Assembly: GCA_039932335.1 (NCBI GenBank)
Contig: JBDTQH010000014.1
Location: 45,118-109,117, forward strand
Source: Chloroflexota bacterium
Lineage (GTDB): Bacteria > Chloroflexota > Chloroflexia > QHBQ01 > JADMIH01
Direction: 5' to 3'
Length of the DNA stretch: 64,000 bases
Shown: positions 25,405 to 25,625 of the stretch, one piece after another
Numbering within the stretch: the stretch's first letter is position 1
Layout: each line of letters starts with the position of its first letter
The notes under the pieces: model-generated
The model's database searches: none
What the model was told of the DNA's origin: nothing
Seen by the model: the letters and a program-made list of their open reading frames with translations, nothing else
Program-made: the position numbers and the translations under genes

Positions 25405-25625
25405 CACTTCAGTGAAGGCAGGGTCTATTCAAAGTCGGGCAAGAGGGTGCAGGGCCATGCCCATGCCGGGGTGTGGGGTGTCCCCGCCTTTCTCCCATTC
25501 CCTTCCTCTCCCCACGCGTGGGGATGAGTGCAGCGGGGGCGGGCAGGGGTGAGGGGCCTGGCCCAAGCCCACCACCTGGGTGCGGGCCAAACCTTACTTT
25601 GAATAGACCCTGTCAGTGAATGACT
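25405..25625 (+). promoter_or_regulatory. about 200-bp GC-rich imperfect palindromic element (element A), candidate structured leader RNA
   Basis: Perfect 17-bp terminal inverted repeats (CAGGGTCTATTCAAAGT at 25419 and ACTTTGAATAGACCCTG at 25596). Central palindrome CCCCACGCGTGGGG with G-rich and C-rich arms. Lies in the divergent intergenic region upstream of the receiver-kinase-receiver operon. Confidence 0.3.

Follow-up and report, generated by a model that had tools for sequence, protein, structure and literature searches.

The DNA analysed here, a 64-kb stretch of a Chloroflexota contig that we call the window, carries a two-component/KimA locus in which a KdpD-like sensor kinase gene and a receiver/kinase operon are read in opposite directions from a shared regulatory region, with a gene for a KimA-like permease farther along the latter strand. 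The host features of the locus are as follows.

21225–22322, minus strand: DDE_5 transposase remnant, a 365-aa open reading frame (ORF) 0.5 kb from the regulator gene
22831–23586, minus strand: OmpR-type response regulator (Pfam)
23522–25255, minus strand: KdpD-C-terminal-like histidine kinase (Pfam)
25286–25313, minus strand: promoter-like site of the KdpD-like kinase gene, TTGGGA-16 nt-TAGAAT, untouched by element A
25340–25404, plus strand: host regulatory region, intact beside element A, with four CTTAT[GA] boxes and TATACT
25673–26050, plus strand: receiver gene (Pfam)
26084–27619, plus strand: second DUF4118 kinase (Pfam)
ending at 28026, plus strand: second receiver gene (Pfam)
28391–30634, plus strand: KimA-like permease, kimA (Pfam)

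The transposase remnant scores 247 bits on NF041680, so far under the 440-bit cut-off of that model that it represents a diverged or truncated insertion sequence, and it is unrelated to the ISAs1-type ends described below. In the regulatory region, CTTAT[GA] boxes at 25340, 25351, 25372 and 25383 (spacing 11/21/11) are followed by a −10-like TATACT box at 25399–25404; judged by their sequence and arrangement, these look like paired direct-repeat sites for the adjacent OmpR-type regulator, together with a −10 box.

For comparison we used three orthologous loci, L055, L056 and L113 (fetched loci are designated by L numbers), which have the same divergent kinase/receiver arrangement and a kinase protein 61–69% identical to that of the window; a further orthologue, L112, has a kinase 75% identical and lies in a different gene neighbourhood, and was thus left out. 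The CTTAT[GA] boxes and TATACT are kept in L055 and L056, as seen by alignment, and in L113, as seen by eye, and the TAGAAT region of the opposing promoter-like site is kept in all three. Two elements that interrupt the leaders of the window's locus, A upstream of the receiver gene and B upstream of kimA, have no counterpart there: an A-like GC-rich palindrome was found at none of the three orthologous loci, nor was element B, and in L055 and L056 kimA comes directly after the receiver gene. The structure that the initial annotation had read as a regulatory RNA is therefore not conserved at these loci. With A and one copy of its flanking duplication subtracted, 64 nt separate TATACT from the start ATG, versus 68 nt in L113, although at such levels of protein identity the absence of A is a distant comparison and not a clean empty site.

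The window also differs from L055 and L056 in having the additional DUF4118 kinase and second receiver between the receiver gene and kimA. The C terminus of this second receiver resembles the single receiver of L055 and L056, a similarity that suggests a local duplication or insertion of the extra kinase/receiver pair.

Several other repeats lie elsewhere in the window. An approximately 50-nt sequence with the core TTTTCAACACGCTSGACCGTTTTT occurs in three copies, one of them inverted (48613–48669, 51685–51736 and 51831–51861), which enclose genes for a Cys/Met PLP enzyme and a nitronate monooxygenase. Two of these copies form a 172-bp inverted pair, and the sequence is possibly an operator or else a further small repeat element. 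Two similar hairpins at 4860–4928 and 5036–5112, with perfect 13–14-nt stems (AGTAGATGCGCCC / GGGCGCATCTACT) and each preceded by ...TTAGAAAGTAGATGCGCCCGAA, make up a small repeated structured element. Inside very large ORFs lie arrays of 150–153-nt (50-aa) repeats with an HWDG..W..VPSP-type motif (8843–9660, 18916–19727 and 53300–54090), and one ORF with such an array, 17165–20674, also has an SLH domain. Finally, an array of 126-nt repeats at 60129–61808 forms a stretch of 63–67% GC, compared with about 54% elsewhere.

Element A

The initial annotation had marked 25405–25625 as a GC-rich imperfect palindrome of about 200 bp. Such a palindrome is indeed there, the element proper being 194 bp long (25419–25612); the marked interval contains it and also takes in flanking direct repeats that had been missed.

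25409–25418, unstranded: left 10-bp target-site duplication of A, TCAGTGAAGG, read from the sequence, with a 9/10 match to the right copy
25419–25612, unstranded: element A, a non-coding ISAs1-family miniature element (MITE), very probably, of 194 bp and 66% GC, a full-length imperfect palindrome
25419–25435, plus strand: left terminal inverted repeat of A, 17 bp, CAGGGTCTATTCAAAGT, with exactly the sequence that ends the ISAs1-family insertion sequences of L006 and L025
25447–25485, plus strand: GC-rich interior module of A, GTGCAGGGCCATGCCCATGCCGGGGTGTGGGGTGTCCCC, common to the B-type element of L111 and, more loosely, to B
25509–25524, unstranded: central 16-bp palindrome of A, TCCCCACGCGTGGGGA (TCCCCACG/CGTGGGGA), the symmetry centre of A
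25596–25612, minus strand: right terminal inverted repeat of A, the perfect complement of the left
25613–25622, unstranded: right 10-bp target-site duplication of A, TCAGTGAATG

Both the perfect 17-bp terminal inverted repeats and the central palindrome had been reported at the outset, and both hold. The repeat is not a sequence that would often arise by chance, with about 0.09 matches to CAGGGTCTATTCAAAGT expected in the 64-kb window when three mismatches are allowed. The duplications abut the two terminal repeats directly and share an 8-bp exact core, with one mismatch in 10 (merged, the two copies give the target sequence TCAGTGAA(G/T)G); direct repeats placed right outside both terminal repeats are what a transposon leaves behind on duplicating its target site.

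Self-alignment gave 63% identity between A and its own reverse complement, well over that of shuffled sequences. As RNA, the plus strand has a predicted folding energy of −113.9 kcal/mol, compared with −92.7 ± 5.0 for shuffles (z −4.3), and the minus strand one of −99.9 kcal/mol (z −3.2); that both strands fold well is expected for a DNA palindrome. The long hairpin closed by a 17-bp helix that had been proposed survives in part: the predicted fold has a closing helix of 17–19 bp and is more stable than shuffles, but its interior is multibranched and a single long hairpin is absent.

The longest ORF overlapping A, of 76 aa, yielded no homologue candidates in a protein-database search. The 64-kb window contains no second copy of A and, by tblastn with ISAs1 transposases, no ISAs1 transposase gene. 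A terminator-like site, that is, a GC-rich hairpin with a T run, was found neither in 25200–25720 nor in 27980–28420, which led us to reject an intrinsic terminator or attenuator as an identity for A or B. A metagenome scan for the A repeat together with CCCCTCACCCC returned no matches.

Elements sharing the ends of element A

A scan for the 17-mer across one genome per species returned at least 54 loci and placed the repeat in at least 37 loci from at least 13 Chloroflexota metagenome-assembled genomes (MAGs). The exact 17-mer stands at both ends of a 1228-bp element (L006, 1179–2406) and of a 1305-bp element (L025, 7–1311), whose single ORFs score 221 and 245 bits on the NCBIfam model for ISAs1 family transposases, NF033564 (cut-off, 70 bits; E values among 17-mer-bounded elements, 1e-65 to 1e-72), and match Pfam DDE_Tnp_1 and DDE_Tnp_1_assoc as well. 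In these full-length elements the stop codon of the transposase lies inside the terminal repeat (GAC TTT GAA TAG), and a 9-bp target duplication of a full-length element can be read in the flanks across L019 and L034. In one MAG, SMAG_U7152 (L006, L003 and L011), the duplications of full-length elements match between contigs, not within one; it appears that the assembler joined or broke contigs at copies of the element, leaving chimeric joins in such MAGs. The same 17-mer also occurs at L043 (1284–1300) in a Blastocatellia MAG of the Acidobacteriota, followed by sub-terminal sequence that resembles the left end of the Chloroflexota insertion sequence, a resemblance which suggests that a 17-mer-bounded element has crossed phyla.

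The same ends bound short non-coding elements of 127–269 bp with several unrelated interior types. Seven paired short copies have ends that are exact or carry one mismatch. Exact 9–10-bp target duplications flank four of them, in L008, L023, L038 and L054 (CCGACGCCGT, ATGTCCATCC, GCTGGGGCAA and GTGGCGAGT), and the copy in L049 has a duplication with an 8-bp exact core (8/9); no target duplication was seen in the flanks of the copies in L002 and L027. All six short copies examined are imperfect palindromes over their whole length, 58–84% identical to their own reverse complements. Their sites bear no relation to one another: the mutL/mreB intergenic region; positions beside genes for an epimerase, an AI-2E transporter and a carboxyltransferase; between genes for an SLH protein and a ferrochelatase-like protein; and between ydjC and a subtilase gene.

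When A and B were searched by blastn against all fetched loci, the terminal 17–21 bases of A alone matched, L048 excepted, and nothing inside A resembled the interiors of full-length elements. Diverged relatives of A's interior, spotted by eye and then aligned, came to light at two loci of a single MAG, LS3_sbin.33. One, L048, aligns to it with a score of 40 against 21 ± 3.4 for block shuffles; the other, L041, scores 31, inside its shuffle range (19 ± 3.0, maximum 33), but aligns clearly with L048 (local score 166), which places it in A's subfamily. Both carry the central palindrome of A, in the form CTCTCCACGCGTGGGGAGAG, and a GTGCAGGG...GGGTGTCCCC module, one being placed upstream of rpsB-tsf and the other next to tilS. 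The fetched loci yielded no near-identical version of A's interior. The dispersed copies thus comprise an A-end class at unrelated loci in at least 13 other Chloroflexota MAGs and, within it, an A subfamily of two diverged copies in LS3_sbin.33.

Terminal repeats of 14–22 bp with CAGGG at their start, and a direct repeat of 10 bp, are described for the ISAs1 family (PMC11946415). Element A agrees with the family in repeat length, in the CAGGG start and in its 10-bp direct repeat, which marks it as a non-autonomous derivative. Set against known members (ISAs1, IS1358, ISMae35 and ISAsp2), it shares the CAGGG start, the 14–22-bp range of the repeats and the 9–10-bp duplication, and its repeat is identical to that of the 1.2–1.3-kb Chloroflexota elements that match NF033564; it differs from them in being 194 bp long, lacking a transposase, having an interior unrelated to that of full-length elements and being mobile only with an enzyme supplied in trans. 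Bacterial MITEs such as MaeMITEa–h of Microcystis span 150–435 bp (PMC2779907). Like them, A is short, non-coding, intergenic and hairpin-folding, with terminal inverted repeats and a target duplication, and elements with its ends exist in many copies; unlike them, the A-end elements carry several unrelated interiors, and the interior module of A is also found in an element with different ends.

On these grounds we conclude that element A is very probably a non-autonomous MITE of 194 bp, derived from an ISAs1-family insertion sequence. The initial annotation had named a MITE as its alternative, to be recognized by copies scattered over unrelated intergenic sites, and that is how elements with A's ends are distributed; they also have target duplications and the same ends as ISAs1-family insertion sequences. 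An ISAs1-family DDE transposase acting in trans would bind and cleave at the 17-bp repeats, and we infer that the source genome has, or once had, a matching enzyme. This transposase would have excised or copied A and inserted it in the 5′ leader of the receiver/kinase operon, where 10 bp of target became duplicated. Since A starts 14 bp after the conserved TATACT box, it is presumably transcribed as part of that leader, and its hairpin would be a by-product of two similar facing ends rather than an evolved RNA switch.

Element B and the interior module

The second element lies immediately before kimA.

28183–28192, unstranded: left 10-bp duplication of B, AGAAGGGAGA, read from the sequence, with a 9/10 match to the right copy
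28193–28376, unstranded: element B, a MITE-like insertion of 184 bp with perfect 15-bp terminal repeats
28193–28207 and 28362–28376: terminal repeats of B, 15 bp, perfect, TAAGTGTTCAGAGTA
28377–28386, unstranded: right duplication of B, CGAAGGGAGA, containing the kimA ribosome-binding site

The ribosome-binding site within the right duplication stands 4 nt before the ATG at 28391. Like A, B folds better than shuffled sequences. Paired-repeat scanning of metagenome contigs found a single homologue, a 171-bp element at L111 (4720–4890) flanked by CGGGGACCGG and CGGGGACTCG and situated between a Na/Ca-exchanger gene and rpsF-ssb-rpsR, upstream of rpsF. The global alignment score of the two (77, against 4.3 ± 3.4 for shuffles) establishes clear homology, most of it in the ends. 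At least 54 matches to the B 15-mer in viral contigs were single and unpaired, and were taken as chance. Directly after the B-type right-hand duplication, L111 (4690–4719) has a degenerate second end-like sequence, TAAATGTCCAGAGGTAAGGGTGGAG, which may be the remnant of a tandem or nested insertion.

With ends unlike those of A, B counts as a MITE-like insertion in its own right, for which no autonomous partner was found. It would have arisen as a separate event of a related kind, just upstream of the kimA ribosome-binding site, which it duplicated.

How far A and B are related can be judged from their interiors. The initial annotation had described a core common to the two, and its motifs, GGGGTGTCCYC and CTCCCATYCC, each do occur in A and B only within the window; a direct comparison of the interiors, however, gives only marginal similarity, equalled by 19 of 300 block shuffles. 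The connection runs through L111, whose element shares with A a module of about 40 nt (local score 43, against 19 ± 3.3; none of 300 block shuffles as good). The interiors of A, B and L111 align in the same order, and the terminal repeats of the A type and the B type, different as they are, both contain TTCARAGT. A and B thus appear loosely related through a GC-rich interior module, on sequence evidence that makes the core real but weak. This core is a module of MITEs with differing ends, not a conserved RNA motif linked to K+ genes.

Competing explanations and consequences

The module raises the question of whether A, as a MITE, also carries selected GC-rich cargo: a structured 5′-leader module that travels on different ends and is retained in the sense orientation, for example by stabilizing or attenuating mRNA. 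The occurrence of the ~40-nt module in both A, with ISAs1-type ends, and L111, with other ends, at a level that none of the 300 block shuffles reached, speaks for such a role, as does its orientation, which is that of the following gene in every one of the four orientable copies (A, B, L111 ahead of rpsF and L048 ahead of rpsB). The orientation bias is not significant at this sample size (p ~0.06), however, and 5′ intergenic regions are where insertions are tolerated. Of the two RNAs of A, that of the plus strand is the more stable by 14 kcal/mol, but G-U pairing accounts for the extra stability of a G-rich strand. The module was not found in the other fetched Chloroflexota loci (~370 kb), and other MITEs with the same ends have unrelated interiors. 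We therefore regard selected cargo as quite unlikely. The uniform sense orientation, which neutral insertion does not predict, is the sole hint of anything beyond such insertion, from a number of copies that is too small. A more specific version of the idea, in which the module GTGCAGGG...CCCnTG...GGGGTGTCCCC (followed by CTCTCCCCACGCGTGGGGAGAG in A, L041 and L048) would be cargo swapped between two MITE end classes in Chloroflexota and kept preferentially in sense in operon 5′ leaders (twice at the K+ locus, and at rpsB-tsf and rpsF-ssb-rpsR) as a mobile RNA structure altering transcript stability or translation, is a long shot.

The interpretation put forward at the outset was that A and B together form a dedicated cis-regulatory RNA, a riboswitch or leader responding, for instance, to c-di-AMP or K+, that guards both operon starts of the K+ locus. 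It drew on the position of the elements in the 5′ regions of the KdpD-like kinase and KimA-like transporter operons, and it can claim that both fold better than shuffles and that they have short motifs in common. Yet good folding extends to both strands, as a DNA palindrome would have it; both elements have transposon ends and target duplications; and both are absent from three orthologous loci at which the promoter elements are kept. Relatives, moreover, lie upstream of rpsB and rpsF, at tilS and beside many unrelated genes.

Searches with Rfam covariance models point the same way. The whole window gave no matches at gathering thresholds, the orthologous loci L055 and L056 gave none, and at E ≤ 10 the interval 25200–28450 gave only chance-level matches to unrelated families, ydaO not being among them. 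The ydaO-yuaA c-di-AMP riboswitch (RF00379), which the initial annotation had singled out, was accordingly rejected: A resembles it in context only, in that a GC-rich, structured sequence precedes a locus with a KimA-like K+ transporter, and differs in lacking a model match at E ≤ 10, in not being conserved in orthologues and in having transposon ends with a target duplication. A dedicated regulatory RNA is, on this evidence, very improbable.

Highly unlikely, too, is an origin of A in place, by insertion of a full-length ISAs1-type element and its internal deletion without the short form ever having been mobile, for although this would give identical ends and a target duplication and fits the lack of a second copy in the window, A resembles full-length elements in its terminal 17–21 bases alone, and diverged relatives of the same short architecture occupy other loci in another MAG.

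With A read as an ISAs1-family MITE, the proper annotation for the structured element in this K+ regulatory region is a mobile-element insertion, not a candidate riboswitch. Beyond the locus, an ISAs1-type insertion sequence is now documented, along with MITEs that share its ends, across at least 13 Chloroflexota MAGs, a record that aids repeat masking and helps to explain fragmented MAG assemblies. In the window, two independent insertions have come to lie in the leaders of one two-component/KimA locus. Because one sits about 14 bp past a likely −10 box and the other duplicates the kimA ribosome-binding site, expression of the locus in this strain may differ from that in its relatives; any such effect on the K+ genes would be incidental.
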